A DNA stretch of 63,012 bases. Origin: Alphaproteobacteria bacterium. Lineage in GTDB: Bacteria; Pseudomonadota; Alphaproteobacteria; Rs-D84. The notes under the pieces were generated by a model that saw only the letters and a program-made list of their open reading frames with translations, ran no database searches and was not told where the DNA came from. Numbering within the stretch: position 1 is the first letter of the stretch; each line of letters begins with the position of its first letter. The DNA is taken from the NCBI GenBank assembly GCA_017618175.1, contig JAFZUT010000006.1:1-63012 (forward strand), read 5' to 3'. Below, in pieces: positions 1-63,008 of this stretch. The translations under genes and the position numbers were made by a program.

Positions 1-55
1 CGATTTGGCAATGGCGCGGATATGCCGGTTTTTGTATTCAAACTGGTCAAAAAAA

Positions 56-147
56 GGTACCTTTTTGTCCACCACTTTTTTTAGAAAATGTGATTCAGTA
101 AAATCAATGACTTACGAAATCTTGCGGGGTGGTCAAAAAAAGGTACC
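56..147. promoter_or_regulatory. Putative invertible promoter segment, type A (locus 1)
   Basis: GGTACC palindromic cores with A/T tracts at 56-61 and 142-147, 86 bp apart. The internal sequence recurs at 6092-6183, 25230-25321 and 41115-41206. IHF-consensus AATCAATGACTTA at 102-114; TGT-TACACT -10-like box at 152-160. Confidence 0.75.
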
Positions 148-188
148 TTTTTGTTACACTGTAATGCGAGGAATAAAGGGGAAATATT

Positions 189-710
189 ATGAAACAAGCA
201 TTATTCATCGGTGCAATTGCATCCGTTTTATCAATCAATGCATTTGCAGAAACAACAACATCAACCGTAACGTCCAAAAATTATGTCGATGCCCAAGACG
301 CATTGAAACAAAATAAAATACCTGCGGCGGGAACAAACGCATCAACCCCCGGTGAAACCGTTGTTACATATACAACAACCGGTAACGGTGTAATCGGTGA
401 ACGTGGAATTTTTAATTATGATACGGACTATGATTGGGACAATCACTCGGTGGAAACGGGACACGAAGGTGACTTGGTCACCGCCGGCGATGTTATGCCA
501 CAACTGGATTATTTATCCGGTGTTTACCAGGTTGATAAATATTGCACAGAATGGTCCGGAACACCGTATACGGATGAAAACTGTTTATTATGGTATATCG
601 GGGATAATATTATGGGCCCCTACAATCTGTGCCAAACTGACTCAGATTGCGATGGATGTGATGGTTGTATTAACGGCCTTTGTAAAGACGATGGAAGATG
701 TGATACGTAA
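189..710 (+). CDS. Secreted Cys-rich protein, dispersed family member 1 (MKQALF-type signal peptide)
   Basis: Signal peptide, conserved TVTSKNYVDAQDALKQ block, CxEW..CLLW motif and Cys-rich tail; AAGGGG RBS upstream. Confidence 0.85.
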   Translation: MKQALFIGAIASVLSINAFAETTTSTVTSKNYVDAQDALKQNKIPAAGTNASTPGETVVTYTTTGNGVIGERGIFNYDTDYDWDNHSVETGHEGDLVTAGDVMPQLDYLSGVYQVDKYCTEWSGTPYTDENCLLWYIGDNIMGPYNLCQTDSDCDGCDGCINGLCKDDGRCDT

Positions 711-5537: not shown

Positions 5538-6041
5538 TTACATCATACAACCCGGTCCGTTAAAACATACCCCATTATTGCCAGAACAACAATAACCACT
5601 CGGACAATCTCGGGCTGAATTGCATGATTGACCAATAACACGTTTTTCAGCCAATTCCCACAAAATACAACTGCTATCAACATGTATCTCACTGTTCCAT
5701 TCTACACAGGTTTTATATGTAACCGTCGTTTCTGGCAGGTTTGTTGCACTTTGTAACAAATCCCGTGTCACCAAGAAATTATCATTACAATCTCCATCAC
5801 CATCCGCATCAGCATCACAAATTCCACGTTCACCCAATACACCCGCTTCATCGGTGTATGTAACAACCGTTTCTCCAACACCGTTTTCCTCGTAATTGAC
5901 CCATGCTTCTGGTATCGTATTTTGTTTCAATGCGTCTTGGGCATCGACATAGTCCCGTGATGTGACGGTGGATGATGTTGCGTATGCATTTAACGCCAAA
6001 ACCGATGCAATTGCACCGATGCTAAGAATTGAAATCCTCAT
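5538..6041 (-). CDS. Secreted Cys-rich protein, family member 2 (MRISIL-type signal peptide)
   Basis: Same conserved N-terminus; body closely similar to 57583-58092. Confidence 0.85.
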   Translation of the reverse strand: MRISILSIGAIASVLALNAYATSSTVTSRDYVDAQDALKQNTIPEAWVNYEENGVGETVVTYTDEAGVLGERGICDADADGDGDCNDNFLVTRDLLQSATNLPETTVTYKTCVEWNSEIHVDSSCILWELAEKRVIGQSCNSARDCPSGYCCSGNNGVCFNGPGCMM

Positions 6042-6091
6042 ATTCCCTTCCTTTGTTATGCTTGTTTGGTATGTTTATATGGTAACAAAAA

Positions 6092-6183
6092 GGTACCTTT
6101 TTGTCCACCATTTTTTTTAGAAAATGTGATTCAGTAAAATCAATGACTTACGAAATCTTGCAGGGTGGTCAAAAAAAGGTACC
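6092..6183. promoter_or_regulatory. Putative invertible promoter segment, type A, flipped relative to its gene (locus 2; predicted ON)
   Basis: GGTACC at 6092-6097 and 6178-6183. On the minus strand it reads TGGACA (6107-6102), 17 bp, TACCAT (6084-6079). Confidence 0.75.
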
Positions 6184-6251
6184 TTTTTGTGACCAGCTAC
6201 CCCACCGCGTCCCGCGGTCCCCCCCTTCACGAAACGTGAAGGGGATTTATA

Positions 6252-7807: not shown

Positions 7808-7822
7808 ACGTCAACCACCGAT

Positions 7823-9361: not shown

Positions 9362-9459
9362 CTTTCACTCCATACTATTATCAAACCTATTTTATCATAA
9401 AAATATTGAAAAAAAAACAGGATTATGTAAAATGCCATCGGTTTTTTATCAAACCATGT

Positions 9460-9544: not shown

Positions 9545-9616
9545 AGAATTATCACATTTGGCGCATTTTCTGCTTGCCCGAAAAATCAAAATTTTGCTAA
9601 CCTGTATGCGAAAGGG

Positions 9617-12430: not shown

Positions 12431-12504
12431 TCCCGGCGCAAGACCTTGACAAAACAATATTTTTTACTATAATGTACTTGAACAGAACAAAAGGGGGGCA
12501 ACCC

Positions 12505-12951: not shown

Positions 12952-13025
12952 AAAATTTATCATAAAGGGCGTTCTAACGCCTTTTATTATTGAAACAAAA
13001 ATTTTTATATGATAACTTTGAAACT

Positions 13026-14521: not shown

Positions 14522-14567
14522 ATGTTTTTCTCTTTTTTTATTATATTATCATACAAAGGAGCAAAAG

Positions 14568-15107: not shown

Positions 15108-15151
15108 ATTAAACGGGGCGGCAACGCCCCAAAATGTTTAATGGGGGCAAT

Positions 15152-17920: not shown

Positions 17921-17930
17921 AATTCAATAA

Positions 17931-19196: not shown

Positions 19197-19217
19197 GGGG
19201 CACATTATAATGGTTTT

Positions 19218-23423: not shown

Positions 23424-23469
23424 AACCTTGGTATTCTATGCTATAATTCCGGAAAATAAAGGAAAAAGT

Positions 23470-24024
23470 ATGCAAAAATTAAATTCTTTGGCGGTTTATT
23501 GTGGTCACAGTTTTGGCACAGACCCGCAATTTGAACGCGATGCGGCACGTGTTGGTGAATTATTGGCACGGAATAAAATTCGTATGATTTTTGGCGGGGG
23601 TAATGTCGGCCTTATGGGAACAACGGCAACGGCGGCAATAAATAATGGTGGTGTGGTATTGGGCGTAACGACACATAATGTTGTCGCCAAACAAGAACCC
23701 GCCCACGAAGAAATAGATGTTGAAGTGGTCGATGGTGTAAACGAACGCAAACAACGTATGTACGAAATGTCCGATGGTTTCATCATTTTGCCGGGTGGAA
23801 TCGGCACGCTGAACGAATTTACAGATATTTTAACTATGCAGCAAATTGGCGAATCGGTAAAACCAATATTCTTTATGAACACGGCAAAGTTCTGGGAATC
23901 TTTTTCCCAAATGTTCTTGGTTATGCAGGACAGTGGATTTATTGAAAATGTTCACGACTATAATGTCCATGTTGCGGACACACCGGACGAATTGTTCAAA
24001 CAGATATTAAATTACGACAAATAA
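23470..24024 (+). CDS. LOG family nucleotide phosphoribohydrolase (TIGR00730-like)
   Basis: GGGNVGLMG, ERKQRM and LPGGIGTLNE motifs. Confidence 0.9.
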   Translation: MQKLNSLAVYCGHSFGTDPQFERDAARVGELLARNKIRMIFGGGNVGLMGTTATAAINNGGVVLGVTTHNVVAKQEPAHEEIDVEVVDGVNERKQRMYEMSDGFIILPGGIGTLNEFTDILTMQQIGESVKPIFFMNTAKFWESFSQMFLVMQDSGFIENVHDYNVHVADTPDELFKQILNYDK

Positions 24025-24026
24025 AG

Positions 24027-24248
24027 TTATTCTGGAATTTCGATAATTTTATCGCGCGCGGCACATCCGCGCACGATTTTTATTTGTGATTTTGGCAAAT
24101 CGAAATATTCCGCCAACAATTTTATGACTGCATCATTCGCCGCACCATCAACGGGCGCGGCGGTTATATGCACGCGTATGCGACCGTCTTCGGCGGTGAC
24201 TTTATTTTGTTTTGCACGCGGAATCACACGCAGGTTTATTCGCCGCAT
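24027..24248 (-). CDS. DUF167/YggU family protein
   Basis: VIPRAK, APVDGAAN and IVRGxxxRDK motifs. Confidence 0.85.
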   Translation of the reverse strand: MRRINLRVIPRAKQNKVTAEDGRIRVHITAAPVDGAANDAVIKLLAEYFDLPKSQIKIVRGCAARDKIIEIPE

Positions 24249-24622
24249 AACATACTCCGCATAATTTCTAAACACGCCGGCGTTTTGTCCCCGGCAATAA
24301 GGTGCATATGAAAATGAAACACGCTTTGATTAAACAACGGCGCGGCCAATCCCGCGTTTGCGAAAACATTAAATTCCGCCTTGATGCCTAATTTATCGGC
24401 GGTTTTGACAAAGCAATCCCAAAAACCGGCCTGTTCGGCGGCCGATGCACGCCGTGCAAAGTCCAAAATATTTTCATATTCGCCCTTTGGCACAACCAAC
24501 ACGTGCGTTTTGCACATTGGGTTCACATCATAGAAAGATATGGCATATTCATTTTCTACGACTTTTTTTGACGGAATTTCACCACGAATAATTTTTGCAA
24601 ACACATTATCTTTGTCGTACAT
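24236..24622 (-). CDS. HIT family nucleotide-binding protein
   Basis: NVFAKIIRGEIP and QSVFHFHMH motifs. Confidence 0.9.
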   Translation of the reverse strand: MYDKDNVFAKIIRGEIPSKKVVENEYAISFYDVNPMCKTHVLVVPKGEYENILDFARRASAAEQAGFWDCFVKTADKLGIKAEFNVFANAGLAAPLFNQSVFHFHMHLIAGDKTPACLEIMRSMLCGE

Positions 24623-24682
24623 AAAAATCCCCTTTGTTATCCCGATAAAATATAATACGCCTACAAAAATAAATCAAGCGGG

Positions 24683-25189
24683 TTAGCAGAACTGGTCTGT
24701 GCAAAAACCATTTACACATGCCCCACCACAAGAAAAACCATGACCGGCGCAATCGTTATCCGTATCACAGGACACCACGTCCCTTCCGTTCCACGGATCG
24801 TTACAATCATACGATGGTTCGCCCACGGCCATCAATAAACAGTTATTATTCGAATCATATTCCGAGCAATATACATTTGGCATTGCGTTATATACACATT
24901 CTGTTGCACGTGCTGCAACATCCGCCGTCACCAATTTATTCGCATCTGTATTCTCGTTATACCTGTTTCCGGCATATATTCCGCGTTCACCGATTGTGCC
25001 GGCGGTAGATGTATATGTGACAACGGTATCACCCGGCGTAGCACTGTTCGTGCCGGTGACGGGTATTTTATCTTGTTTCAATGCATCTTGGACATCGACA
25101 TAGTCCCGTGATGTGACGGTTGAACTTGTTGCGTATGCGTTGAACGCTAAAACTGATGCAATTGCACCAATGAATAATGCTTGTTTCAT
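24683..25189 (-). CDS. Secreted Cys-rich protein, family member 3 (MKQALF type)
   Basis: Likely start at 25189 after the shared RBS; body closely similar to 62490-63008. Confidence 0.85.
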   Translation of the reverse strand: MKQALFIGAIASVLAFNAYATSSTVTSRDYVDVQDALKQDKIPVTGTNSATPGDTVVTYTSTAGTIGERGIYAGNRYNENTDANKLVTADVAARATECVYNAMPNVYCSEYDSNNNCLLMAVGEPSYDCNDPWNGRDVVSCDTDNDCAGHGFSCGGACVNGFCTDQFC

Positions 25190-25229
25190 AATATTCCCCT
25201 TTATTCCTCGCTGTACAGTGTAACAAAAA

Positions 25230-25406
25230 GGTACCTTTTTTTGACCACCCCGCGAGATTTCGTAAGTCATTGATTTTACTGAATCGTATTTTCTAAAAAA
25301 AGTGGTGGACAAAAAGGTACCTTTTTGTCCACCATTTTTTTCAAAAAATTTTCTCAGTAATTTCAATGGTCCAATTTTTGACCGAGGTGGTGGTCATAAA
25401 GGTACC
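25230..25406. promoter_or_regulatory. Double switch: segments A and B back to back with three GGTACC sites, between divergent family genes (locus 3)
   Basis: GGTACC at 25230, 25316 and 25401; perfect 32-bp palindrome at 25303-25334. Confidence 0.75.
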
Positions 25407-25456
25407 TTTTTGTTACCATATAAACATACCAAACAAGCATAACAAAGGAAGGGAAT

Positions 25457-25912
25457 ATGAGGATTTCAATTCTTAGTATCGGTGCAATCGCATCCGTTTT
25501 AGCATTAAATGCATTTGCAACAACATCAACCGTCACATCACGGGATTATGTGGACACCCAAGATGCATTGAAACAGGATTTAATTGAGACAGATGATACC
25601 TATTGGGATGGTTATTTTGGTGTGACTGATACATTGGTAAGTAATGATGCGGAAGATGGCGATGGTATACAAGGCTATAAGTATGGGATATTTACAGATT
25701 CGTATGATATCAATAATATGGGGGGAGTTAGGTGGATTCTTTATAATGAAGACGCTTATCTGATTGGTAAAACCATACCAACCACTGCTGCCACCGCGGA
25801 CCTTATAAGAAATGCGACAAAAATGACATGCGTAGAGTATATAGGTGGACAGCAAAATGGTGTTCCGGAAGATTGCCTTCTTTGGCGAATGCCGGATAAC
25901 GCGGTTTGGTAG
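25457..25912 (+). CDS. Secreted protein, family member 4 (MRISIL type)
   Basis: Conserved N-terminus, TCVEY..CLLW motif, no Cys-rich tail. Confidence 0.85.
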   Translation: MRISILSIGAIASVLALNAFATTSTVTSRDYVDTQDALKQDLIETDDTYWDGYFGVTDTLVSNDAEDGDGIQGYKYGIFTDSYDINNMGGVRWILYNEDAYLIGKTIPTTAATADLIRNATKMTCVEYIGGQQNGVPEDCLLWRMPDNAVW

Positions 25913-35180: not shown

Positions 35181-36050
35181 ATGGCAGAAGTCACAGCGAA
35201 ATTGATTCAAGAACTGCGCGAAAAAACATCCGCAGGTATGATGGATTGCAAAAAGGCATTGATTGAAAATAATGGTGATATCCAGGCGGCGGCCGATTGG
35301 TTGCGCCAAAAAGGTATTGTCAAGGCGGCGTCCAAGGCCGGCCGCGTGGCGGCATCGGGTTTGGTGACCGTCGTAAAATGCGATAATATGGGTTGTGTCG
35401 TTGAATTGAACGCCGAAACAGACTTTGTTGCGAAAAACGACAAATTCCAAAAATTGGTTGCCGATGTTGCGAACAAGGCTTTGGAATTGTCCGGTGATTT
35501 TGACGCAACACTGGCCGCGGTCAAAGACGATATTGCATCCACAATCGCGACAATTGGTGAAAATATGAATCTGCGCCGTATTGCAAAAGTTTCAGGCCAA
35601 CATATTTTCAGTTATATTCACAATGCATTGGTTCCGGGCATGGGGCAAATTGGTGTTGCGGTCGCAATTGATGGTGATTCGGATAAAATTGCCGAAATCG
35701 GTCCAAAAATCGCGATGCACATTGCGGCGAACAAACCGGAATTTATGACCATTGCCGATGTTGATCCGGCGGCGGTTGAACGCGAGAAAAAAGTGTTCAT
35801 CGAATCTGGGGCAACGGCGGGCAAACCGGAAAACATCGTTGAAAAAATGGTGAACGGTCGTTTGCAGAAATACTATGCGGAATCGGTTTTGGAAGAACAA
35901 CCATTCGTTATGGACCCGTCCAAGACCGTTAAACAGGTTTTGAACGAAGCCGGCGGTAAATTGGCAGGATTTGCTTACTTTGTGTTGGGTGAAGGCATTG
36001 AAAAACGCAATGATAACCTGGCGGATGAAGTTGCAAATATGTTAAAGTAA
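35181..36050 (+). CDS. tsf: Elongation factor Ts
   Basis: AGMMDCKKAL and ETDFVA motifs; follows rpsB. Confidence 0.97.
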   Translation: MAEVTAKLIQELREKTSAGMMDCKKALIENNGDIQAAADWLRQKGIVKAASKAGRVAASGLVTVVKCDNMGCVVELNAETDFVAKNDKFQKLVADVANKALELSGDFDATLAAVKDDIASTIATIGENMNLRRIAKVSGQHIFSYIHNALVPGMGQIGVAVAIDGDSDKIAEIGPKIAMHIAANKPEFMTIADVDPAAVEREKKVFIESGATAGKPENIVEKMVNGRLQKYYAESVLEEQPFVMDPSKTVKQVLNEAGGKLAGFAYFVLGEGIEKRNDNLADEVANMLK

Positions 36051-36054
36051 GTGT

Positions 36055-36093
36055 TAGTGGTTAGTGAAAACCGGCGGGAAACCGCCGGTTTTT
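36055..36093 (+). terminator. Repeat-type hairpin terminator after tsf
   Basis: AAAACCGGCGG-GAAA-CCGCCGGTTTTT with the shared TAGTGGTTAGTG 5' extension. Confidence 0.8.
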
Positions 36094-40120: not shown

Positions 40121-41062
40121 TTAATTCTTGTTCCACAACCAACAATTTGCATCGGTGTGAGTTGCATCATATGTTGTTGTACCATCCGGCCACCCGGCAC
40201 AGGTCATTTTCGCCTGGGCATATGTGGTGACACCGGCCATTGTTGGTATTTTCGCGGAATCATTTGTCGCATTGTACGCCGCCGCACCGGTATATGTCGC
40301 AACCGAACCACCAACCACACCATTTGAATTATATGTGACAACATTACCCGCCGTCCCGGTCGGCAGTGTCACCTGGTTATTACTAATCGCCGCCATAACC
40401 GCACCCATTGTGGGAATGGAAATTTTTTGAATTGCCTTTTGATTGGCCGTTAAATTTGATGCTTGGTAATTTGGTACATCACTTTCCTCGATTATCTTAC
40501 GTTCACCAACAACATTGTCCATACCCGTTCGAGTAGCGATACCTGTTCCTTTGACACGAATATTCAAATAGTCAAACGTGCTCCCCCCGGATCCTTCCGT
40601 ATAAGCATTTGTAACTCCAGAACCATTAATTTCTCCATAACCAGATTTTGGAATCCTATTTTGCAAATAATTATTCATATTGTCCCAAATTAATCGTGTT
40701 TCGTTTGCCACGGCACGAACCGTCGGTATCATTTTATCTGTGATTGTGGTACTCAATACTTCTACGCTATCGCTAAAACCCCACAACCCATCACCGTCAC
40801 TTACGATACCAGCAATTTCATTGTTCACAATACCGTATTCATCCCCAACCAATCCATTTGTTGTGTCGTATGAAACAACGGTGGGGATTTCAAAATCATC
40901 TCCATAGGCACTAAATTCCATAGTGTCCGCATTGATTAAATCTTGTTTCAATGCATCTTGGGCATCAACGTAACCCCGTGAAGTCACGGTTGATGATGTT
41001 GCGTATGCATTGATTGATAAAACGGATGCAATTGCACCGATGCTAAGAATTGAAATCCTCAT
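40121..41062 (-). CDS. Secreted protein, family member 5 (long form, MRISIL type)
   Basis: Likely start at 41062; conserved N-terminus; ends in TCAGW..CWLW. Confidence 0.85.
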   Translation of the reverse strand: MRISILSIGAIASVLSINAYATSSTVTSRGYVDAQDALKQDLINADTMEFSAYGDDFEIPTVVSYDTTNGLVGDEYGIVNNEIAGIVSDGDGLWGFSDSVEVLSTTITDKMIPTVRAVANETRLIWDNMNNYLQNRIPKSGYGEINGSGVTNAYTEGSGGSTFDYLNIRVKGTGIATRTGMDNVVGERKIIEESDVPNYQASNLTANQKAIQKISIPTMGAVMAAISNNQVTLPTGTAGNVVTYNSNGVVGGSVATYTGAAAYNATNDSAKIPTMAGVTTYAQAKMTCAGWPDGTTTYDATHTDANCWLWNKN

Positions 41063-41114
41063 ATTGTCCCTTCCTTTGTTATGCTTGTTTGGTATGTTTA
41101 TATGGTAACAAAAA

Positions 41115-41206
41115 GGTACCTTTTTTTGACCACCCTGCAAGATTTTGTAAGTCATTGATTTTACTGAATCGCACTTTCTAAAAAAAGTGATGGACAAAAA
41201 GGTACC
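41115..41206. promoter_or_regulatory. Putative invertible promoter segment, type A (locus 4; predicted OFF)
   Basis: GGTACC at 41115 and 41201. The interior is the reverse complement of 6098-6177 while the gene-proximal leader is nearly identical. Confidence 0.75.
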
Positions 41207-41229
41207 TTTTTTTTGACCAGTTTGTACAC

Positions 41230-41257
41230 AAAAACCGGCGGAAATCCGCCGGTTTTT
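41230..41257 (-). terminator. Intrinsic terminator after clpB, upstream of the switch
   Basis: AAAAACCGGCGG-AAAT-CCGCCGGTTTTT. Confidence 0.75.
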
Positions 41258-41272
41258 AATAATCGCCAATCA

Positions 41273-45865: not shown

Positions 45866-46058
45866 TTTTATTGCTTGTTAGGTAATCCCCGCCGAATGGT
45901 GGGGATTTTTCGTGCATCAAAACAGATTGACTTTTTTGCCGTTTTTTGGTATAATACCAAACACAGATGACGACATTGTGTCGCCATTTTATTTTGCCCG
46001 AACATAACCCGTTCGGGCCATTTTTATTTAATATATTAAATCAAAAAAGGATAAAAAT

Positions 46059-46886
46059 ATGGAATATTACAATAACATGATTGGGGACGGAACGACCAAG
46101 ACTTTTTATTTTACGTTCCCGTTCTTTGGTGTAAATGATGTGCAAGTCACAATTGACGGGGTTGCCCAAACAACGGATGAATATATTATGACACCAACAC
46201 TAACACCAAATGATGCCGACACCCAATACACCGGTGGCAGCATAGAATTTTTAACCGCCCCCGCGAACGGCGCAATCGTCACAATATATCGTGAAATAGA
46301 TTTGGTACGGCATATTGATTACCAACCAACCGAAAAACCGTTGTCATATCAATTAAACCAAGAATTTAACCAGTGCATTGGGGCACTGCGCGAAATCAAG
46401 ATAAAAATACAAAACATACTGAATTTGGCAACATTGCCGACATTGGTAAATTTATTGACAACCGTGACAGACATCCAAGAAAGCCTTCCCGATTTCTTGA
46501 CCGCCGATGATTTGACCGATATTAATACCGCCATCGCCACATTACCGAACAAGGCCGACATAGATATGGATAACCTAAGTTCAACCGGTAAATCCACCAT
46601 CACAAATCTTGGTATGCCCGATTATGCCAACGGAACCCAATTGTCGGTCAGTGCGGGTCAATCTGTTCAAATTGAACAGGATTGCTGTCTTTACCTGTAC
46701 GCCAGTAATAATGGTGGCATACAAATCAGACAGACAAACGCCAACGGCATAATATTGGCTCAATTAACCCAAAATTCATCTATTGAAACATCGTGTATGA
46801 TTTACGTCCCGGCCGGAATAACGATTTACATAAAAACAAAAACCGGAAATTCTGGTATCACGAAATATCCACTGCGCGGGCAATAA
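46059..46886 (+). CDS. Phage tail-fibre-like protein (isolated)
   Basis: N-terminal GDGTTKTF.FTFPF...DVQV resembles podophage tail-fibre anchor domains; KADIDMDNLS and MPDY segments. Confidence 0.55.
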   Translation: MEYYNNMIGDGTTKTFYFTFPFFGVNDVQVTIDGVAQTTDEYIMTPTLTPNDADTQYTGGSIEFLTAPANGAIVTIYREIDLVRHIDYQPTEKPLSYQLNQEFNQCIGALREIKIKIQNILNLATLPTLVNLLTTVTDIQESLPDFLTADDLTDINTAIATLPNKADIDMDNLSSTGKSTITNLGMPDYANGTQLSVSAGQSVQIEQDCCLYLYASNNGGIQIRQTNANGIILAQLTQNSSIETSCMIYVPAGITIYIKTKTGNSGITKYPLRGQ

Positions 46887-46900
46887 TAAAACCCGTTCAT

Positions 46901-47935
46901 TTATTGAACGGGTTTATCATATACAAACTTTTTTGGTTGGCCAAACAATATTCGCATTAATTTATTTTTGGGTTTTGCATCTATGGATTCAACCAAAAAT
47001 TGCTTAAAGTTTCTGTTCATATTTGGATATGTTCCAAAACCCAATCTTTTCGCAGAATCGATATCTTGGGCAAACAAATTATCCCACCAATCCAAATACA
47101 ATTTATGGTCCCACCTATACTTTTCTTCTTGGTCGGCGGTCATAACCGGTTCTGACAACATTTTGCAGTATAAATCATCATTTGAATCCAATTGTTTTAT
47201 TTTTTCCAATACCTCATCCAAACTCATTTCGTTTGCATTTATAAAACGTTTTGGATTGAATGAATCCGCAACCGATGGATCACCCCAATAAATTGGAATA
47301 GTATATGCCTGCAAGGCGGTCAATAACTTTTCACTGGTATAACCGCGATAGGTCGCGTTTTCCGATGCGATTGTAAATTTGTAATTTCTTTTTACCCGTT
47401 CATCCACAAATTTTTCGGCCGATTCAACATTCCGCAGATGTGTTCCCAACGCATCAACCGGTTTATATTGCGAAATCGCATAAAACAATCTGTCCCGCAT
47501 TGGATGCGCATTTGGGTTTGTGTAAATAAAATTACAGAATTTTGTTTTACGTTTCAATTCGTCGTGCGCATCTGTACATTTTATCCAAAAATCCGGTGTA
47601 AGGCGCTTATGGAAAAAATCTATCGTTGGCATACGAATAATTCTGTCATCACATTTTAAATTCCGGTCAAAACTAATCGCATAATCAAACCAATTCAAGT
47701 CGGGCGCCATGGCTTCGCCACCATAAAAAATATTTATCGTACGATTATTCGACAATTTCAAAAATTGTTTATATAAATTTACATCTTTATAAATCCATTC
47801 GCTTACTATTAAATAATCTGGGTTGGTATCATCCCAAATTAAATTATACTTTTCGCGTGGAATCAGCAGATGTTCATACAAAAAACTGATATCATTATAT
47901 AAAGGATGCAAAAAATAAATTCTTATATTTTTCAT
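46901..47935 (-). CDS. Alpha-1,3-fucosyltransferase, GT10 family
   Basis: FCNFIYTN, YKFTIASEN..GYTSEK and IPIYWG motifs. Confidence 0.88.
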   Translation of the reverse strand: MKNIRIYFLHPLYNDISFLYEHLLIPREKYNLIWDDTNPDYLIVSEWIYKDVNLYKQFLKLSNNRTINIFYGGEAMAPDLNWFDYAISFDRNLKCDDRIIRMPTIDFFHKRLTPDFWIKCTDAHDELKRKTKFCNFIYTNPNAHPMRDRLFYAISQYKPVDALGTHLRNVESAEKFVDERVKRNYKFTIASENATYRGYTSEKLLTALQAYTIPIYWGDPSVADSFNPKRFINANEMSLDEVLEKIKQLDSNDDLYCKMLSEPVMTADQEEKYRWDHKLYLDWWDNLFAQDIDSAKRLGFGTYPNMNRNFKQFLVESIDAKPKNKLMRILFGQPKKFVYDKPVQ

Positions 47936-47938
47936 TTA

Positions 47939-48904
47939 TTATTCCTTTGGCAATTTCAACAAATCCCCCAACCTTCTGTCCCATTCTTGGGGTTCAAATT
48001 TTTCCATACCATTAAAATGATAAAATGTTATTTCACCAAAATACAACGCGTCGCCCACAATATAGAAATCGACCCGACAATGAACAAATTTTTCCGCCAA
48101 TATGCGTGCGATATTTAACATTTCGTCAAATTGTTTTGGTTTTTTTATAATATTATTCGAATTCTCATAATGTTGCTTAAAGGGCAATTTTTGAAAGTCC
48201 AAGTCATAAAAATTAAATCTTAAATCCTTACCTCTATCAATTGCCACAAACAAGAAATTGGGTTCACCATTATTACAAAATATTTTATAATCCAACAGAT
48301 TCCCATCCATTTGTTCAATATACTTTTCCGCGATAATTTTTGGTTTAATATCCTTATAACACCATTCAAAAGACATAAAATAATGATTGCTTTCTGGGCG
48401 CATCCATTTTGCCAATTGGCGACGCGTTTCACGTATATTTAATTTGGATTTATCTTTTACAATAATATTTTGTCCACTGCCCCAATTGACCTTTAAAACA
48501 AATTTATCGGGCAATTTATCAAAATCTATATCATCGGGATTGTCCCATACACCAATGCACGGAATCAAATATTTTTCACCAATTTTCTGTTTGATATATT
48601 CGCGTACCGCAACCTTGTCCGCACATTTTGTCATTAACGGATTACGATAATAAAATTTTAACCATTGCAATTTTTCATTAAATGTTTTCGGGTTGTCTAA
48701 ATTCAGTGGATACCCAACACTGCGCATAAATTGTTGTTCAAGACAATAACGTATTTCTTCCGGGCTCAAACCATCAAAACGTCTTGCGTATATTTCATCG
48801 TACTTAGACAGTTTCCGTTTTTTGCTATAACTAAAAATCTTTATACCACAAAAATAGATATGCCGGCGTCCATTTGGATAACGTTCTTTTCTAAAAATCT
48901 GCAT
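47939..48904 (-). CDS. TupA-like ATP-grasp protein
   Basis: PKTFNEKLQWLK, ADKVAVREY, DYKIFC and YFGEITF motifs. Confidence 0.88.
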   Translation of the reverse strand: MQIFRKERYPNGRRHIYFCGIKIFSYSKKRKLSKYDEIYARRFDGLSPEEIRYCLEQQFMRSVGYPLNLDNPKTFNEKLQWLKFYYRNPLMTKCADKVAVREYIKQKIGEKYLIPCIGVWDNPDDIDFDKLPDKFVLKVNWGSGQNIIVKDKSKLNIRETRRQLAKWMRPESNHYFMSFEWCYKDIKPKIIAEKYIEQMDGNLLDYKIFCNNGEPNFLFVAIDRGKDLRFNFYDLDFQKLPFKQHYENSNNIIKKPKQFDEMLNIARILAEKFVHCRVDFYIVGDALYFGEITFYHFNGMEKFEPQEWDRRLGDLLKLPKE

Positions 48905-49847
48905 TTTTATTACTCCAATCAATAAACTTTTTTATTCCATCGGTAAAAGTTGTTTTCGGGGTATAGCCCAACAATTTATGCGCCTTGGACCAATCGCACA
49001 CCGTTTTGTCCACATCCCCGGGTTGCATAGATTGTTGATGAATTATAGCCTTTTTACCGATTGTTTTTTCTATTGTTTCTATCATACGACTTAACGTTAT
49101 CGGTTCGCCACCCCCAAGGTTTATTATCTCGTACCCTGTTTTATTATAATCTATTGCGGTGCAAATACCATCGACTATATCATCTATATATGTGTAATCG
49201 CGTTTTGTCGTTCCATCCCCATACATTTGGATGGGTTCACCCGCATTAATTTTATGGGCGAATTTACGAATTGCCAAATCTGGACGCTGGCGCGGACCAT
49301 AAACCGTAAAAAATCGCAACGCAACCACACTTATTCCATACAAATGGTGCCAAGTAAACAACAATTGTTCGCACGCAGATTTCGTGGCGGCATATGGTGA
49401 TATGGGTTCTGTCACTTTCAAATCTTCGCTGAATTCGGTTGCGGAACAATTACCATAAACCGATGAAGACGAAGCAAACACCATTTTCTTCACACCATAT
49501 TGACGCATACATTCAAGTATATTTACCGTACCAAATATATTCGTTTTTACATAATCCATCGACCGTTCCAAACTTGGGCGAACACCGGCACGCGCCGCCA
49601 AGTGAATTACCGCATCAAATTTATGTTCTGCAAAAATTTTTGCGATTTCGTCCTTATTTTCAATATCTGCACGATACAAAACATAATTTGGATTTGATAA
49701 ATTTGGACGAACATTTTTCTCTTTGATATTCACATCATAATAATCGTTAAAATTATCAACGACGACAACGTTATGACCTTTGGCCAATAACCTGTCCGCC
49801 AAATTAGAACCTATGAAACCTGCCCCGCCCGTTATCAAATACTTCAT
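48891..49847 (-). CDS. NAD-dependent epimerase (UDP-glucuronate 4-epimerase-like)
   Basis: TGGAGFIG, HLAARAGVR, YAATK, RFFTVYGPRQRPD and QPGDV motifs. Confidence 0.9.
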   Translation of the reverse strand: MKYLITGGAGFIGSNLADRLLAKGHNVVVVDNFNDYYDVNIKEKNVRPNLSNPNYVLYRADIENKDEIAKIFAEHKFDAVIHLAARAGVRPSLERSMDYVKTNIFGTVNILECMRQYGVKKMVFASSSSVYGNCSATEFSEDLKVTEPISPYAATKSACEQLLFTWHHLYGISVVALRFFTVYGPRQRPDLAIRKFAHKINAGEPIQMYGDGTTKRDYTYIDDIVDGICTAIDYNKTGYEIINLGGGEPITLSRMIETIEKTIGKKAIIHQQSMQPGDVDKTVCDWSKAHKLLGYTPKTTFTDGIKKFIDWSNKNADF

Positions 49848-51581
49848 TTATACCTCGCTTGCAAAAATTTTTTTACCCGGGTTTTTCTTTTTATGTCCAC
49901 AGAATTCGAAATTCACCGTATCAATCCTGTAATTGACATCTGACAAATATGGAATTTTCAATTTATTTTTCCATAAAACATAAAACAACCCCAATTGATC
50001 CCGTTTAGAATATTTCTGTAAAACATCCCACCAATCCGTCATTACCTTTATGCACTTCTTATCATGATGCCTGCGCCAAATAACATTATTTTCACCCAAA
50101 CCATAATGCGCCGGGAATTTTTCTTTGCCCAAGAACGCCTTGTATCGCCGCAAATTTTCATCTGTATCCAATTCGTAATGCGCGACCGCATCTATTTCTT
50201 CGTAAATACAATCCCTTTTATAATGTTTTGGCACAGACAAAACCGCACCGTCCGGAATTTTATCTATATCATCAAATAATTTTGCGGTTTTAACATTGAT
50301 ATTGGCATCGATATAAATGCTGGTTTGATAATCCGGAAACAAAATATGCGGATGAAATTTATGCCAACGATTTATTTCGGCAAGACCACCCTTATTGAAT
50401 GCCAATGGCCTAACCTTCCACACCCCGACATTTTTCTTTTTTATATATTTCGCGTTATCTGTGAACAAAATATAATCATAGTTTTTGTTTATACAACTTG
50501 GTTGTATAAGGTCATCATAATCGCCCGTAATACAGGTATATATAACCCCATCATTTTTGCCGCCTGTTTTTTTCGGGATAATAATATTGGGACATAAATG
50601 TGGTTTTTTATACCAACTTAAAATTTTTATTCCCATAAAATATATATGTTGGCGTCCAAATGTCTTGCCGTCACGCGAAAACAGTGTCCGTCGACGTTCT
50701 TTTTTCAAATAGTCATTATATTGATCTATTATTGATTGAACCTGGCTTATATGTCCTGGGGCACTTAAAACATCGTGCCATTTATTATTAAATTTAATGG
50801 CATTTTGGGCGCACAAATCCCGGGTCTGCATTATCTTGTCCCCATAACTGACTGTTTCAAAATGCAGAATGCGCGATTGAAAAACATTAACAACCCTTAG
50901 CCCCAATTTACGAATTTTGAAGCACAAATCTGTGTCTTCATAATATGCCGGATTAAATATGGGGTCAAAACCACCGACCCGATCCCACAATTTCTTGTCC
51001 AAGACAAGGCAACAACCGCTTTTATAATCAAAATCTACATTTAATTTTTTTAATCGGGAACGATATTTGCAATCGCGCCCTATGCGCACAACCACATTAT
51101 CGCCCGAAATGACACCGCCCAATTCGCTGACCGTGCCATTTGGTGCAATCAATGTCGCGCCTGCCGCACCGACGCTTTTATCTTTTTCCAAAGTTTGAAT
51201 TATTGGCGCCAACCAATTTTTATAAAACAACATATCATTATTCAAAAACGCAATATATTTACCACAGGCATATTTTACGGCATTTGTACAATTCCTGCCA
51301 AATCCAGAATTCGTTTCCGTGCGAATATGCCGGATGCCACCTATCTTTTTTGATATGTCCACCGTTTCATCCGTTGAACAATCGTCCGCAATGATAACCT
51401 CATACGGGACACCCGTTGTATGTTTCAATATAGAATACAGGCATTCCCGGGTCATTTGGAATTTGTTATATACCGGTATAATCAAAGACACAGTCGGTTT
51501 TTTCACGACCGGGAAATCAAAAGTTTCCGGCGCATCATAATTTCCATACGTCTTTAACAATAATTTTCTAAGACTGTCCAT
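49848..51581 (-). CDS. GT2 glycosyltransferase fused to a DUF616-like domain
   Basis: IIPVYN, DDCSTD, YYEDTD; C-terminal YTCITGDYD, YIDAN and RDQL. Confidence 0.82.
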   Translation of the reverse strand: MDSLRKLLLKTYGNYDAPETFDFPVVKKPTVSLIIPVYNKFQMTRECLYSILKHTTGVPYEVIIADDCSTDETVDISKKIGGIRHIRTETNSGFGRNCTNAVKYACGKYIAFLNNDMLFYKNWLAPIIQTLEKDKSVGAAGATLIAPNGTVSELGGVISGDNVVVRIGRDCKYRSRLKKLNVDFDYKSGCCLVLDKKLWDRVGGFDPIFNPAYYEDTDLCFKIRKLGLRVVNVFQSRILHFETVSYGDKIMQTRDLCAQNAIKFNNKWHDVLSAPGHISQVQSIIDQYNDYLKKERRRTLFSRDGKTFGRQHIYFMGIKILSWYKKPHLCPNIIIPKKTGGKNDGVIYTCITGDYDDLIQPSCINKNYDYILFTDNAKYIKKKNVGVWKVRPLAFNKGGLAEINRWHKFHPHILFPDYQTSIYIDANINVKTAKLFDDIDKIPDGAVLSVPKHYKRDCIYEEIDAVAHYELDTDENLRRYKAFLGKEKFPAHYGLGENNVIWRRHHDKKCIKVMTDWWDVLQKYSKRDQLGLFYVLWKNKLKIPYLSDVNYRIDTVNFEFCGHKKKNPGKKIFASEV

Positions 51582-51679
51582 TTTCGTCCTTTCCAAATAT
51601 TATAAATTTGCCGAATAAAATCCTAATGCACTTATAATCATACCATCCGCAGAAAAATAAAGCAAACCAGAAAAATATA

Positions 51680-52942
51680 TTATTCCGCATTGCCCAAAAT
51701 CGTATTAATAATCAAATCTGCGGTTTTATCCCAAGAAAATTGCTTTGCACGCGCCAATCCGCGCGCACGCATATCTTCACGCAATTTCGGGTTATTATAG
51801 TAATTTTCATATGCCGCAATATGTTGATCATCACTGTCCCAATCTATCATTATGCCGGCATCACCTACGACCTCTGGCAAAGACGAATTATTTGATGTAA
51901 TGACCGGACATCCACATTGCATTGCCTCTAACGGTGGCAAACCAAAACCTTCATATTGCGAAGTATAAACAAACCATTCCGCACCACTGTAAAGTGCGGC
52001 CAGGTCCGCATCATCAATATATCCGGCACGAATAATTTTATCTTTGTAATTGCCTAACCCATCTATCTGGGCCTCTAACTTGCCAATAAATTCATCCCAA
52101 TGACCACCACCAAGCACAAATACAATATCATCCACCTAGTTCTTTTTTATAAATTCAATAAACGTTTTCACCGCACGAATTAAATTTTTACGTGGTTCCA
52201 AAGTGCACAATGAAAACACATACTTTTTATCGGTGGGAATATTATATTTTGCACGCGCGGCGGCAATTTGTTTATCGTCTGTCACGTGGTAAAAATTATC
52301 ATTTGCCGCCAATGGAACCATTTTGATATCATTTGAATTTACATTAAATAATTGCACAAAATCATTCTTGGTTGCCGCAGAATTTGCAAAGTATTTACAC
52401 GTATTCTTGGCGTTCCGTACATATTGAACCAACCCATCAAACCAATAATGATTTTTTGAACGCGCGTTACTGTAATAATCGGGAAACAACACAGGAATTG
52501 TATCATGTAAAAATATATATTTTTCCTTGGCCTTGATTTTTTTGGGAAACACATAAATGGGCGAAAAAGCAACATCAAAATTCGGTATTCTAATATGGTA
52601 TCCCGAAAACTTTAAAGGTTTGCGCACGAACACATTTAATAACAATTTTGTGATATTGTGTTTTGATGCGCGCAACCTTTTATCCAATTGAACCATTTTA
52701 GATAAAAACTTTGTATATCTGTTGTCATAATAAACGCGTACACTGCCAAAATTTTGTTTTACAAAATCGTCAAATCTATCATCAAAATAACTGCTGTATA
52801 ATGACACATCAAATTTCTTTTGTGCCATCAAGTTTTTCAGTATATTATATGTCGCAAAATAAATTCCCGAACGCCCACGTCCATTATTAAGATTTTCTGC
52901 GATGACCGATGCATCGAAAATCAATGTTCGCTTGTTTTCCAT
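51680..52942 (-). pseudogene. GT4 glycosyltransferase interrupted by an in-frame TAG
   Basis: The TLEPRKN half and the [12 protein letters not shown] half are in one frame, separated only by TAG at 52138-52136. Confidence 0.8.
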
Positions 52943-52952
52943 TTTGATTGTC

Positions 52953-54023
52953 CTATTTCTCAAATTCGCTTTCACGCGGGAATTTCGTCTCAAAAAATTC
53001 CCGATTATGGTCAAAATTTGCGTTCGAATTGCACCAACTGTCATTTATGCACATTATCTTGGCCCTGCATTTTAATGCCCCTGATTCAAATGCATCAGTA
53101 CAATAGAATGCAGAATCACGCACAGATTTATAATGAACCAAATTATACATAAAATCCAATATGATATTATGCCCAATGTGTCGTGAATGCGCGCGAATTA
53201 TCCGTGAACGCCCCTTGACAACATCATACAAATTGAATACCAAACGGTGGACATCCGTTTCATCACGAAAACGATTATATCGTGTGGCATTTATAATCGG
53301 GTTCAACACCGGATGCGCCAAACAATCAATCATTGAAGATTTGATATATGGGTCCATACCATGCGACGCCTTGTAATTATAAAGCCGAACGCCAAATGCG
53401 CGTTCTATCGCCTCCGCCGCATTTATCAAATGCAATAAATAAACACTGTTCTTATCACGGGCAATATGACCGTTTTTGCGGTAAATTGCGCGGAATTTCG
53501 CCCTGCCCTGGGGGTCAAAGAAATAATCCGGCGATGTAGGCGCATTAAAAAACATATCATCGTTGGCCAATATGAAATGTTCCGCCAATCCCGGAATATT
53601 CGCCAAAGACGCCTCAATCGCGCACGAATTAAAAATCGGTGACGCATCGGCCGGCAATATAGATTCTTGGGGAATAACGGTCACGCGTGGATTGTCCGTA
53701 TTCAACCATTTTGGAACCTGGCCAAAACCGGTCACAATATAAATGTGATTTATCCAAGGCGCGTTTTTTTCCACAGACCGCATTGAATACTTTAATTCAT
53801 CATTGTCACGATAAATTTGTTCTTTGTTATCATCAACATATTTGCTGTCGTCTTTACCGGCCGCGCGCAGGTATTTTGCCTTGGTCTTTCTAAAATCCGG
53901 ACTGCTGCCATCAATCCAAAGATACACCAAATCTATGGGGAACGGAAATTTTCTATCAAACGAATGTTTATCTCTTTTCCTAATCATGTGAAAAATTCTG
54001 GCATAAAACATACCCAAAGTCAA
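52953..54023 (-). CDS. Stealth family hexose-1-phosphate transferase
   Basis: IDLVYLWIDG, ELKYSMRS..APWI, FNSCAIE, NDDMF and CIND motifs (CR1-CR4). Confidence 0.9.
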   Translation of the reverse strand: MTLGMFYARIFHMIRKRDKHSFDRKFPFPIDLVYLWIDGSSPDFRKTKAKYLRAAGKDDSKYVDDNKEQIYRDNDELKYSMRSVEKNAPWINHIYIVTGFGQVPKWLNTDNPRVTVIPQESILPADASPIFNSCAIEASLANIPGLAEHFILANDDMFFNAPTSPDYFFDPQGRAKFRAIYRKNGHIARDKNSVYLLHLINAAEAIERAFGVRLYNYKASHGMDPYIKSSMIDCLAHPVLNPIINATRYNRFRDETDVHRLVFNLYDVVKGRSRIIRAHSRHIGHNIILDFMYNLVHYKSVRDSAFYCTDAFESGALKCRAKIMCINDSWCNSNANFDHNREFFETKFPRESEFEK

Positions 54024-54099
54024 ATATCAATATATTTTTCAAATAAAAACTTACCCCGGCATTAACCGGGGTAAAAAAGCAAGAATATTTTGCGACAAA

Positions 54100-54693
54100 T
54101 TATTCCGCAACTTCCGTTGTGGCCTCTGGTGCCGCGGCCACATCTGCCGTTTTTTCTTCGGCCGGCGCTTCTTCTGTGGCTTCTTCTTCAACCTTTTTGG
54201 TTCCAAATGTCAAAACCTTGCCTGCGACCAACGCTTCGATTTCATCATTGGTACGTGCAACATAGACTTTGATTGGAACAATAACATCCGGATGCAGTGC
54301 GATTTTTGTATCGAACGCACCAACCGATTTAATCGGCGCACCCAACATAACCTGGGCCGAAGAAACATCAACATTTGCAATTTCTTTCAAAGTGCGTGCG
54401 ATATCGCGACTGGACACAGAACCATACAATTGACCTGTATCACCGGCCTGGCGAATCATATACATCTTGGCATTCTTGACCGCATCAACCTTGGATTCGG
54501 CCGCCTTCTTGGCGTTTTCATGACGCGCCTGCAATTCCGCCTTTTGCGCTTCAAACAATGCGACATTTTCACGTGACCAACGCAACGCCTTGTTATTAGG
54601 CAACAAGAAATTGCGTGCATAACCCGTTTTAACTTCGACTGTATCGCCAATATTACCCAAACGTGTAATTTTTTCTGTTAAAATAACTTTCAT
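54100..54693 (-). CDS. rplI: 50S ribosomal protein L9
   Basis: VKTGYARNFLLP and LYGSV motifs. Confidence 0.96.
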   Translation of the reverse strand: MKVILTEKITRLGNIGDTVEVKTGYARNFLLPNNKALRWSRENVALFEAQKAELQARHENAKKAAESKVDAVKNAKMYMIRQAGDTGQLYGSVSSRDIARTLKEIANVDVSSAQVMLGAPIKSVGAFDTKIALHPDVIVPIKVYVARTNDEIEALVAGKVLTFGTKKVEEEATEEAPAEEKTADVAAAPEATTEVAE

Positions 54694-57389: not shown

Positions 57390-57428
57390 TAGTGGTTAGT
57401 GAAAACCGGCGGTTCCCCGCCGGTTTTT
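57390..57428 (+). terminator. Repeat-type hairpin terminator upstream of switch locus 5
   Basis: TAGTGGTTAGTGAAAACCGGCGG-TTCC-CCGCCGGTTTTT. Confidence 0.75.
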
Positions 57429-57450
57429 GTTTTCAAACTGGTCAAAAAAA

Positions 57451-57541
57451 GGTACCTTTTTGTCCACCATTTTTTTCAAAAAAATTTTTCAGTAATTTCA
57501 ATGGTCCAATTTTTGACCGAAGTGGTGGTCATAAAGGTACC
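57451..57541. promoter_or_regulatory. Putative invertible promoter segment, type B (locus 5)
   Basis: GGTACC at 57451 and 57536; interior nearly identical to 25322-25400; flanks match locus 1. Confidence 0.75.
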
Positions 57542-57582
57542 TTTTTGTTACACTGTAATGCGAGGAATAAAGGGGAAATATT

Positions 57583-58092
57583 ATGAAACAAGCATTATTC
57601 ATTGGTGCAATCGCATCTGTTTTATCGATCAACGCATACGCAACTTCATCCACGGTTACATCCAAAGATTACGTAGATGCCCAAGACGCATTGAAACAAG
57701 ACACTATACCCGAGGCGGGTGTCAATGCCGATGAAAACGGTGGCGGAGAATCGGTTGTTACATATACTGATGCAGAGGGCGTACTTGGTGAACGAGGAAT
57801 TTGTGATTCGAATGCAAATGCCGATGGTGGTTGTGATGATAATTTCTTAGTTACGCGGGATTTATTGCGAAATGTGGAAAATCTGCCAACACGCACGGTG
57901 ACATATAAAACGTGTTATGAATGGTCTGGAACCCCGCATACAGATGCAAATTGTATATTATGGAACTTATCGGATAGGAAGGTAAAAGGTTGCATTGAAA
58001 GCGGTATAACCGGTGAAAACGTATGTCAAAACGATGCGCAATGCTGTAGCAGAATGTGCGTCGATGGTTATTGCATGGAACCACAATATTAG
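57583..58092 (+). CDS. Secreted Cys-rich protein, family member 6 (MKQALF type)
   Basis: Conserved N-terminus; body similar to 5538-6041. Confidence 0.85.
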   Translation: MKQALFIGAIASVLSINAYATSSTVTSKDYVDAQDALKQDTIPEAGVNADENGGGESVVTYTDAEGVLGERGICDSNANADGGCDDNFLVTRDLLRNVENLPTRTVTYKTCYEWSGTPHTDANCILWNLSDRKVKGCIESGITGENVCQNDAQCCSRMCVDGYCMEPQY

Positions 58093-62462: not shown

Positions 62463-62491
62463 AAAAATACCCGCATCTGCGGGTATTTTTT
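62463..62491. terminator. Bidirectional intrinsic terminator
   Basis: AAAAATACCCGCA-TC-TGCGGGTATTTTT. Confidence 0.75.
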
Positions 62492-63008
62492 AGCACTCAC
62501 CTATACCGCAAATGCCATTGTTACATACTTCGCTGTGGCATCCGTTATTTGGATCGTACCCTGGACAATCAGCATCCACCGTGCAACGTACCGTACCATA
62601 CCACGGTTCATCACAATTATATGATGGTTCACCAACCCCCATCAATAAACAGTTATTATTGGAATCATATTCCGTACAATATATATTTGGCATCGAATTA
62701 TACACACATTCTGTTGCACGATATGCAACATCCGCCGTCACCAATTTATCCGCATCGGTACTTGAATCATAACCATTTGTTCCATCAAAAATTCCACGTT
62801 CACCGATTGTGCCGGCGGTGGATGTATATGTTACAACGGTGTCGCCGGGTGTTGATGCATTCGTTCCGGTCGCCGGTATTTTATTTTGTTTCAATGCATC
62901 TTGGGCATCAACATAATCTTTGGATGTAACCGTGGATGAAGTTGCCAGAACTGAATTGATTGTAATAACCGATGCAATTGCACCGAATGCAAGAATTGAA
63001 ATTCTCAT
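62490..63008 (-). CDS. Secreted Cys-rich protein, family member 7 (MRISIL type)
   Basis: Conserved N-terminus; body similar to 24683-25189; upstream region lies beyond the window end. Confidence 0.85.
   Translation of the reverse strand: MRISILAFGAIASVITINSVLATSSTVTSKDYVDAQDALKQNKIPATGTNASTPGDTVVTYTSTAGTIGERGIFDGTNGYDSSTDADKLVTADVAYRATECVYNSMPNIYCTEYDSNNNCLLMGVGEPSYNCDEPWYGTVRCTVDADCPGYDPNNGCHSEVCNNGICGIGEC

Follow-up and report, generated by a model that had tools for sequence, protein, structure and literature searches.

The 63,012-nucleotide stretch of DNA analysed here (the window), which is the entire contig C26 of an 891,628-bp genome assembled in 29 contigs (G000), carries five loci at which paired palindromic sites enclose a short segment upstream of a gene for a secreted, often cysteine-rich protein. 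The genome as a whole holds 29 complete units of this kind, and we read them as miniature invertible-promoter switches, the two segment types A and B being two alleles of the part that flips. We assign a probability of about 0.7 to this explanation as a whole.

Paired palindromic sites precede a family of secreted-protein genes

Each site consists of two arms around GGTACC, with a symmetric centre, AAAAAGG-TA-CCTTTTT, that forms a hix-like palindrome; every core match has the symmetric TA as its central dinucleotide. With up to two mismatches allowed, the window contains 11 occurrences of the core AAAAAGGTACCTTTTT, where 0.04 are expected, and none of 100 shuffles reached 11. The core positions are 51 and 137 (locus 1), 6087 and 6173 (locus 2), 25225, 25311 and 25396 (locus 3), 41110 and 41196 (locus 4), and 57446 and 57531 (locus 5). 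Genome-wide, 61 candidate sites were found, 55 of which make up the 29 complete units, while three are cut by contig ends and three are chance look-alikes. The site centres are spaced by 86 bp in 24 of the 29 units and by 85 bp in the remaining five, which are B-like. Read toward the gene, a unit is ordered as an outer flank with a hairpin (the flank usually being a terminator-like hairpin), a distal site, a segment of ~54 bp, a proximal site, a leader and the gene for a secreted cysteine-rich protein. Four arm types compose the sites: the outer arm CTGGTCA[C/A]AAAAAGGT, the distal inner arm D (GGTGGACAAAAAGGT), the proximal inner arm P (GGTGGTCAAAAAAAGGT) and the leader arm L (G[TG]GTAACAAAAAGGT). 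Every A unit is bounded by the inverted arms GGTACCTTTTTGTCCACC and GGTGGTCAAAAAAAGGTACC, and a third segment variant, A', has an outer-like P arm. The P end points toward the leader in 28 of the 29 units, including one tandem case in which it points toward the next unit.

An earlier note on this DNA had claimed that loci 1 and 5 share flank and leader and differ in the segment between them, and direct reading bears this out. Loci 1 (26-207) and 5 (57420-57601) have in common the outer flank CCGGTTTTTGT[A/T]TTCAAACTGGTCAAAAAAA and the leader TTTTTGTTACACTGTAATGCGAGGAATAAAGGGGAAATATTATGAAACAAGCATTATTC, which stays identical into the first codons of the gene with an MKQ start; a repeat search matched 139-248 to 57533-57642 with 94% identity over 110 nt. 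The segment is A in locus 1, where the site centres are spaced by 86 bp, and B in locus 5, where the spacing is 85 bp. The distal halves of A and B are alike and homologous, whereas the proximal half and the proximal arm differ (GGTGGTCAAAAAAAGGT in A, GGTGGTCATAAAGGT in B). On the plus strand of locus 1, the outer arm GGTCAAAAAAAGGT and the D arm ACCTTTTTGTCCACC form the distal site (45..73), followed by the interior of segment A (74..127), whose P end lies toward the gene in what we read as the OFF state, and by the proximal site (128..159), in which the P arm is joined to the leader arm ACCTTTTTGTTACAC with a −10-like TACACT. The gene behind it (189..710) has an MKQ start and encodes 173 amino acids with a signal peptide, a cysteine-rich tail and no Pfam family. 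Locus 5, also on the plus strand, opens with an outer flank (57390..57439) made of the terminator-like hairpin AAAACCGGCGGTTCCCCGCCGGTTTTT plus GTTTTCAAACT, a module that recurs at other loci, and continues with the distal site (57440..57468; outer arm, then D arm), the interior of segment B (57469..57523), the proximal site (57524..57553; B-type P arm GGTGGTCATAAAGGT, then leader arm, with TGGTCA 17 bp from TACACT) and an MKQ gene of 169 amino acids (57583..58092).

All four combinations of segment A or B with an MKQ or MRIS leader are present in the window, again in agreement with what had been noted. Segment A goes with MKQ at locus 1 and in the left half of locus 3, B with MKQ at locus 5, A with MRIS at locus 4 and, with A inverted, at locus 2, and B with MRIS in the right half of locus 3. 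Locus 3 (25220..25418) has three sites, with A and B back to back between two divergent genes, A serving the left one (MKQ, 24683..25189, minus strand) and B the right one (MRIS, 25457..25912, plus strand). The locus 4 unit (41104..41218, minus strand) holds segment A in the common orientation, read as OFF, and serves an MRIS gene of 313 amino acids (40121..41062, minus strand). Locus 2 (6094-6180) is the sole case among the 29 complete units in which segment A is reversed relative to its gene; the full unit lies at 6081..6194 on the minus strand, with the D arm beside the leader, and serves the MRIS gene at 5538..6041 on the same strand. Locus 2 has a paralogue at C5:204-290 that matches it in leader and outer flank but carries the segment in the opposite orientation, with the sequence switching exactly between the cores. 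Both orientations are thereby seen among paralogues with the same flank (window 6094 and C5:204).

Members of the protein family share a signal peptide, a conserved TVTSKDYVD..KQ head and a C...NCLLW motif, and often have a cysteine-rich tail. A Pfam search with seven of them returned nothing above cut-off. Used as a query, one member matched 43 places in its own genome and none in 40 other species (E<=1e-5); a profile of seven members retrieved 536 homologues, which where named are only hypothetical proteins of alphaproteobacterial metagenome-assembled genomes. Comparison of A-unit DNA with 40 relatives matched only G000 plus one weak hit, a Protein Atlas search gave no usable match, and an Rfam scan gave nothing at gathering score, with only hairpin-type microRNA models below threshold.

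A flip is predicted to complete a promoter split across the proximal site

In a scan for consensus promoters, a promoter straddling a site was reported in the inverted locus 2 only, with TGGACA in the D arm, 17 nt, TG, and TACCAT in the leader arm; no straddling promoter was reported at loci 3 and 5. A script run over all units found a −10-like TAC[AC][CA]T at a fixed place in each of the 28 leader-adjacent units. The hexamer TGGACA at a distance of 17 bp is present in one of these 28, and would arise on flipping in the other 27. As they lie in the common orientation, 19 standard A units among those 27 present TGGTCA 19 bp away (in one, TGATCA), the hexamer is TGGTCA at 17 bp in the three B units, and the unit beside the invertase gene described below has GGGACA at 17 bp.

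A flip between the site centres would exchange the arm that adjoins the leader, such that the segment would carry only the −35 box while the fixed leader arm would carry the −10 box. With the D arm beside the leader, the −35 box TGGACA would stand 17 bp from TAC[AC][CA]T and the switch would be ON. With the A-type P arm beside the leader, TGGTCA would stand at 19 bp and the switch would be OFF, the two extra A's of the P arm detuning the spacer. In our reading of the sequence, the locus 2 unit would be ON and the 27 other leader-adjacent units OFF. Given that the B-type P arm puts TGGTCA at 17 bp, B is probably the leakier allele. The same −35/−10 logic is found in a related species (G205), with segments of 133 bp and a −10 box of TACAAT or TATACT, and in two metagenome contigs. 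A metagenome scan for a 23-mer returned only two short contigs, from a related organism.

Near the middle of segment A (74-127) lies the IHF-like AATCAATGACTTA, which fits the core consensus of IHF, and the other strand holds a promoter-like pair, TTGATT-N18-TAAAAA, that points out through the D arm. Genes resembling those for HU, IHF-alpha and IHF-beta are present in the genome, with scores below the equivalog cut-offs.

A probable serine invertase of the Mpi family is encoded beside a unit

A serine recombinase of 199 amino acids is encoded at C9:153-752, where it adjoins a B-like unit and a family gene. Recombinase matches in the genome number four tyrosine and three serine enzymes, and the C9 protein is the only small serine recombinase among them. 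It matches Pfam Resolvase PF00239 over residues 3-144 (E 1.3e-32), with weak HTH_23 and HTH_7 matches at 165-196. It also matches the NCBIfam model NF009949, 'master DNA invertase Mpi family', with 270.4 bits and E 9.1e-81, its residues 3-197 covering profile positions 2-196 of 203. The closest solved structures are Gin invertases (E 7e-8), and GYIRVSS aligns with GYVRVST of Gin in the catalytic serine region. Judged by these matches and its position, the C9 protein is likely the enzyme that acts on the sites. At E<=1e-10, homologues of it were detected within the genus in 19 of the 24 species sampled, in six of six of a second genus and in none of 10 other relatives.

In three more distant species, G003, G013 and G014 (L086-L088), an invertase homologue of ~50% identity lies between the macroglobulin gene and rpsB. 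The macroglobulin-rpsB gap of G000 measures ~140 bp, and its invertase gene is on another contig (C9), beside a unit. A 3-kb gap between rpsB and the macroglobulin gene in G067 was considered as an invertase locus and rejected, as it encodes a 933-amino-acid secreted protein. Just downstream of the family gene beside the G000 invertase, a small open reading frame looks Cro/C1-like (L005 1584-1838, on C9). An inverted-repeat scan around the invertase homologues of six relatives gave nothing clear; one pair of sites, with centres AA and TT, was noted by eye at L037 (G014:C16, ~1330-1480). There, the hix-like palindrome TTACACAAACG-AA-CGTTTGTGTAA lies upstream of an invertase homologue of 69% identity, and the second site, with central TT, lies ~130 bp away beside the gene of another secreted protein. 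Other species seem to have related switches whose centres are asymmetric.

Orthologous loci differ in segment orientation, segment type and presence

The exact site was found in four of 257 genomes of the genus: G000, the sister species G067 (flanks 81-93% identical to those of G000), G205 and, as one decayed copy, G179. At C3:7351 of G000 and its G067 orthologue, the outer flank is ~97% alike up to the distal core, where it gives way in G067 to segment A in the opposite orientation and then to another leader, and similarity resumes within the gene. At C15:12915, G000 holds A and the G067 orthologue holds B, with the gene ~93% identical from about codon 25 on. The G067 orthologue of C14:332 is a single site without a segment. 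One G067 unit is absent together with its gene from between adjacent flanks in G000, and the flanks of another lie 16 kb apart in G000. In G205, the D arm stands beside the leader in five of six pattern matches, and four other units examined have D beside the outer flank; one unit of this species lies between two divergent leaders and forms a toggle.

Segments assort independently of flanks and leaders

The earlier note had named module phylogenies congruent with simple whole-locus duplication as what would refute exchange between loci; a test of module congruence did not refute it. Association between modules was assessed by a Mantel test on 21 loci, for which 22 of the 29 units were entered, seven being omitted with a leader or gene that is cut, unique or missing, and one was then dropped without a recognisable start. 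Outer flank and leader were correlated (r=0.40, p=0.0015), while the segment was significantly correlated neither with the outer flank (r=0.17) nor with the leader (r=0.07). A flank-leader correlation across an uncorrelated segment is the pattern predicted by segment interchange between matching flanks.

Since all units have the same symmetric core, any two sites are compatible substrates; the cores are also short identical repeats. A crossover between two units at the symmetric centre would be expected to yield D|D middle sites like those in three-site loci. As a matter of logic, an inversion across the outer two sites of a three-site locus would swap A and B between the two divergent genes. 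On this reading, evolution has seen segments, leaders and gene heads pass between loci, segments deleted, and blocks between loci inverted or moved.

Units lie at changed junctions of the chromosome

In a chromosome REARRANGEMENT comparison, the window was set against five species (G003, G013, G002, G006 and G014) that are more distant members of the genus. All four internal loci of the window lie at gene-order differences from all five of these relatives. In four of them (not G006), the tyrS block and the block from 6.3 kb flank an inverted block of 7-14 kb, which in the three species checked with tblastx contains PBP1c, macroglobulin, an invertase homologue, rpsB and tsf; in G000 the PBP1c-to-tsf block now lies at 25.95-36.05 kb. 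In five of five relatives groES (36.17 kb) is the immediate neighbour of the sequence at 24.6 kb, and the flanks of loci 4 and 5 are likewise apart in all five. About six breaks carry no unit: 17919|17931, ~19.6|20.4, 36.05|36.17, 38.1|39.6, 43.97|44.4 and 45.9|54.1 kb. Finding four of four unit junctions among ~10 breaks in ~54 junctions has a hypergeometric probability of ~7e-4, a rough value that depends on junctions counted by hand.

Three close relatives have three orders of the same blocks, with units at most of the changed junctions. G067 has the ancestral order, and its corresponding junctions lack a unit. In G179 the order is a third one, with a unit at each of three changed junctions examined and, at a fourth stretch, a family gene only. 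Either units cause the breaks, or units may settle at breaks together with their genes. A single inversion as the route from the G179 arrangement to locus 3 was considered and dropped, the G179 gene at the PBP1c end being no clear orthologue of the right gene of that locus.

Weighing the invertible-promoter explanation against alternatives

Several observations weigh against invertible promoters whose sites also serve exchange between loci. The split promoter is a consensus match, and shuffles of the region average 0.6 such matches; moreover, a conserved TATAAT/TATAAA a few bases downstream in many leaders is left unexplained by the split-promoter model. For a synapse of a serine invertase, crossover points 86 bp apart are very close together, the NF009949 score falls 1.6 bits under the curated cut-off (270.4 against 272), and the reciprocal site with two outer arms (outer-arm|outer-arm) was not found among the 61 candidate sites. 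No read or contig with both orientations of one locus was seen in one sample, in sequence present in 13 sequencing runs, none of them recorded as RNA and all available as Logan contigs that stop at repeats. Over window 5700-25650 the contigs of four of these runs (X1-X4) end at repeats with loose ends attributable to paralogues, and are thus uninformative about orientation and joints. All compared genomes are metagenome assemblies, in which blocks between inverted repeats can be mis-oriented. Locus 4, gene and unit together, is absent between the same flanks in G067 and is a plain insertion in G000. Linkage decays along the gene in the absence of sites (leader-sp1 r=0.60, leader-sp2 0.30, leader-n1 0.08), and the right boundary of both orthologous replacements lies inside the gene, not at a site. 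Finally, the tsf-groES junction of G000 is unique sequence without a site, indicating that the rearrangement there is real and not site-borne.

The last of these points bear on an explanation that keeps invertase-run switches and ascribes the interchange of A and B, the swapping of leaders and the rearrangement of blocks only to RecA-type homologous recombination and gene conversion among the ~29 near-identical cassettes, the invertase never joining different loci. We place this explanation a little below even odds. The in-gene decay of linkage and the in-gene boundaries indicate that homologous gene conversion is at work and explains much of the mosaic. Module linkage falls as fast inside the coding region as across the sites, start-peptide and cleavage-region types of the family occur in all combinations without a site between them, and the loci share 110-190 nt at 90-96% identity, which is enough for exchange; one rearranged junction, moreover, has no unit. 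By contrast, the left boundary of the G000/G067 difference at C3:7351 falls exactly at the distal core, which favours the sites, the correlation of outer flank and leader across an uncorrelated segment fits site-bounded cassette exchange, and the perfect D|D middle sites are what a crossover at a symmetric core would leave. The proposal of the earlier note that the sites also recombine between loci is partly supported; it holds in that segments assort independently of flanks, and falls short in that mosaicism extends into genes without sites; its further suggestion of chromosome rearrangement at the sites agrees with the four internal loci at synteny breaks and fails at the tsf-groES junction. 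That exchange between loci uses the sites rather than ordinary homologous recombination is a tentative view, which we would back at somewhat less than one in two. We consider it rather unlikely that the Mpi-type invertase also joins sites of different loci, and in so doing swaps strict A and leaky B segments between genes, fuses units into toggles for divergent genes, excises segments and inverts or moves kilobase blocks.

Three other explanations deny the switch itself or the mosaics. Mosaics and rearrangements could be artefacts of metagenome assembly across repeats, through chimeric joins and arbitrary block orientation, given that many G000 contigs end inside units, that the window opens with 50 nt that a C14 unit has as its outer flank, and that short reads cannot orient blocks flanked by inverted repeats. 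This is improbable, since the tsf-groES junction (36.05-36.09 kb) is unique sequence that differs from five of five distant relatives and from G067, the adjacency of tyrS block, unit and next block is independently present in G179, and A and B differ over ~30 nt, within one read length; the arm-core-arm words of the inverted unit, found nowhere else in the genome, must come from reads. The paired palindromes might instead be operators of a DNA-looping regulator, possibly the recombinase homologue acting as a mere binding protein, with no programmed inversion and the inverted copy a rare accident. A fixed site spacing of 85-86 bp, or about eight helical turns, that overlaps the promoter region would suit such operators, as would the 28 of 29 units in one orientation and the lack of visible flipping within samples among the Logan contigs, broken as they are at repeats. 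However, the inverted state recurs (one unit in G000, one at a different locus in G067 and five in G205), the catalytic serine region aligns with that of Gin, the match to the Mpi-family model is full-length, and D and P arms remain distinct from each other in nearly every A unit, which a symmetric operator would not need; we therefore hold looping to be very improbable. Scarcely credible, in our estimate, is a 118-bp unit that inserts itself as a miniature inverted-repeat transposable element. Its terminal palindromes, its multiple copies and its restriction to few species, with the exact site in the four genomes named above, are what such an element would show, but all complete units precede either a family gene or a further unit, with the leader arm conserved, target duplications and copies in other contexts are absent, and presence/absence differences involve the unit together with the gene.

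Further features of the window and genome

Housekeeping genes of ordinary type flank the window loci. One more family gene, with an MRIS start, lies at 62490..63008 on the minus strand, its upstream unit truncated where the contig ends. At 25304-25333, the middle site of locus 3 is a perfect 30-bp D|D palindrome followed by a run of seven T's, and a scan marked it as terminator-like on the minus strand. Distal sites with the following ACTTTTTTTAG may also block read-through from upstream genes. A repeated terminator module, made of TAGTGGTTAGTG-type words and a AAAACCGGCGG...CCGCCGGTTTT hairpin, is present at 6241-6290, 36050-36092, 41219-41260 and 57390-57431, and lies 3' of many genes with or without a switch.

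Positions 1-50 of the window match base for base the outer flank of the unit on C14 (G000 C14:418-470), and contig C17 ends with the same segment-A variant as locus 1, there behind another outer flank. This sharing reflects either duplicated flanks or molecules with different flank-to-gene joins in the sample. Contig C21 (11.4 kb) has at both ends inverted copies of one A' unit with leader, with the genes facing outward, and its block could exist in either orientation. A cluster of glycosyltransferase, Stealth and fucosyltransferase genes at window 46000-54100 is replaced or absent in the compared relatives; this variable surface-glycan region is not bordered by a switch unit.

Relation to known systems and biological meaning

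Uncultured gut alphaproteobacteria of this kind, with tiny genomes, are described as reduced-genome inhabitants of farm-animal guts (PMC12306168), and inversion, phase variation, recombinase, cysteine and antigenic terms are all absent from that paper. A literature search returned no account of such switches in these bacteria, nothing on an Mpi-family invertase system of this sort in Alphaproteobacteria, and nothing on inversion of a split or hybrid promoter.

The closest known system is that of Bacteroides fragilis Mpi, which here appears miniaturised, with a symmetric core and an apparently split promoter. The B. fragilis Mpi master invertase is reported to flip 13 regions, including seven polysaccharide promoters (PMC4747536), and the Mpi-type serine recombinase is broadly conserved in Bacteroides (PMC10403206). 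Similar to that system, a single small serine invertase, apparently of the Mpi family, is accompanied here by many dispersed segments between inverted repeats that would bear promoters for surface or secreted products, and most of the targets lie far from the invertase gene. Unlike in B. fragilis, 29 units are packed into a 0.89-Mb alphaproteobacterial genome, their crossover points lie just 85-86 bp apart, the core is a full palindrome around a symmetric central TA, the −35 box alone appears to flip while the −10 box stays fixed, and the targets are single small protein genes rather than polysaccharide operons. The invertible regions of Bacteroides Mpi measure roughly 170-230 bp.

With Hin, Gin, Cin and Pin, the system shares a small serine recombinase with a helix-turn-helix tail. 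A hix site is an imperfect palindrome with A-tract arms around a 2-bp centre, and the present sites resemble hix and gix in being imperfect palindromes of ~26-30 bp with A-tract arms and a 2-bp centre. In the Hin and Gin systems a Fis-bound enhancer is needed and an asymmetric central dinucleotide fixes site polarity. Those enzymes each invert one segment of 1-4 kb, whereas here the segments are of 86 bp, at many loci and with a symmetric centre. The mpl (P35) lipoprotein family of Mycoplasma penetrans has one invertible promoter per gene, with a tyrosine recombinase and an element of ~135 bp that holds the whole promoter. Both cases combine a multigene surface-protein family, a small genome and a short invertible promoter per gene, permitting combinatorial on/off expression, although the phylum and the protein family differ. 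Like the R64 shufflon with Rci, the present system has many compatible sites whose segments could be exchanged or reordered by one recombinase, and an A/B swap would be possible in the three-site loci; shufflons, however, reshuffle coding ends at one locus with a tyrosine recombinase, whereas here the sites are chromosome-wide and exchange between loci would be the counterpart.

For site-specific recombination and recombinase logic, the units would be of interest as a switch that moves only a −35 box and changes a spacer by 2 bp, as an 86-bp substrate for a serine invertase, and as sites whose crossover core is fully symmetric. This 0.89-Mb genome appears to devote a large share of its length to some 40 variable secreted proteins, 29 of them behind predicted flip switches of their own. 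So many switched secreted proteins in a small genome suggest that the surface is under strong pressure to vary, exerted by host immunity, phages or partner cells. Should the sites serve inter-locus exchange as well, phase variation would be linked to chromosome rearrangement; this would amount to programmed plasticity of a 0.89-Mb genome, and would explain why the gene orders of very close species differ exactly at these loci.

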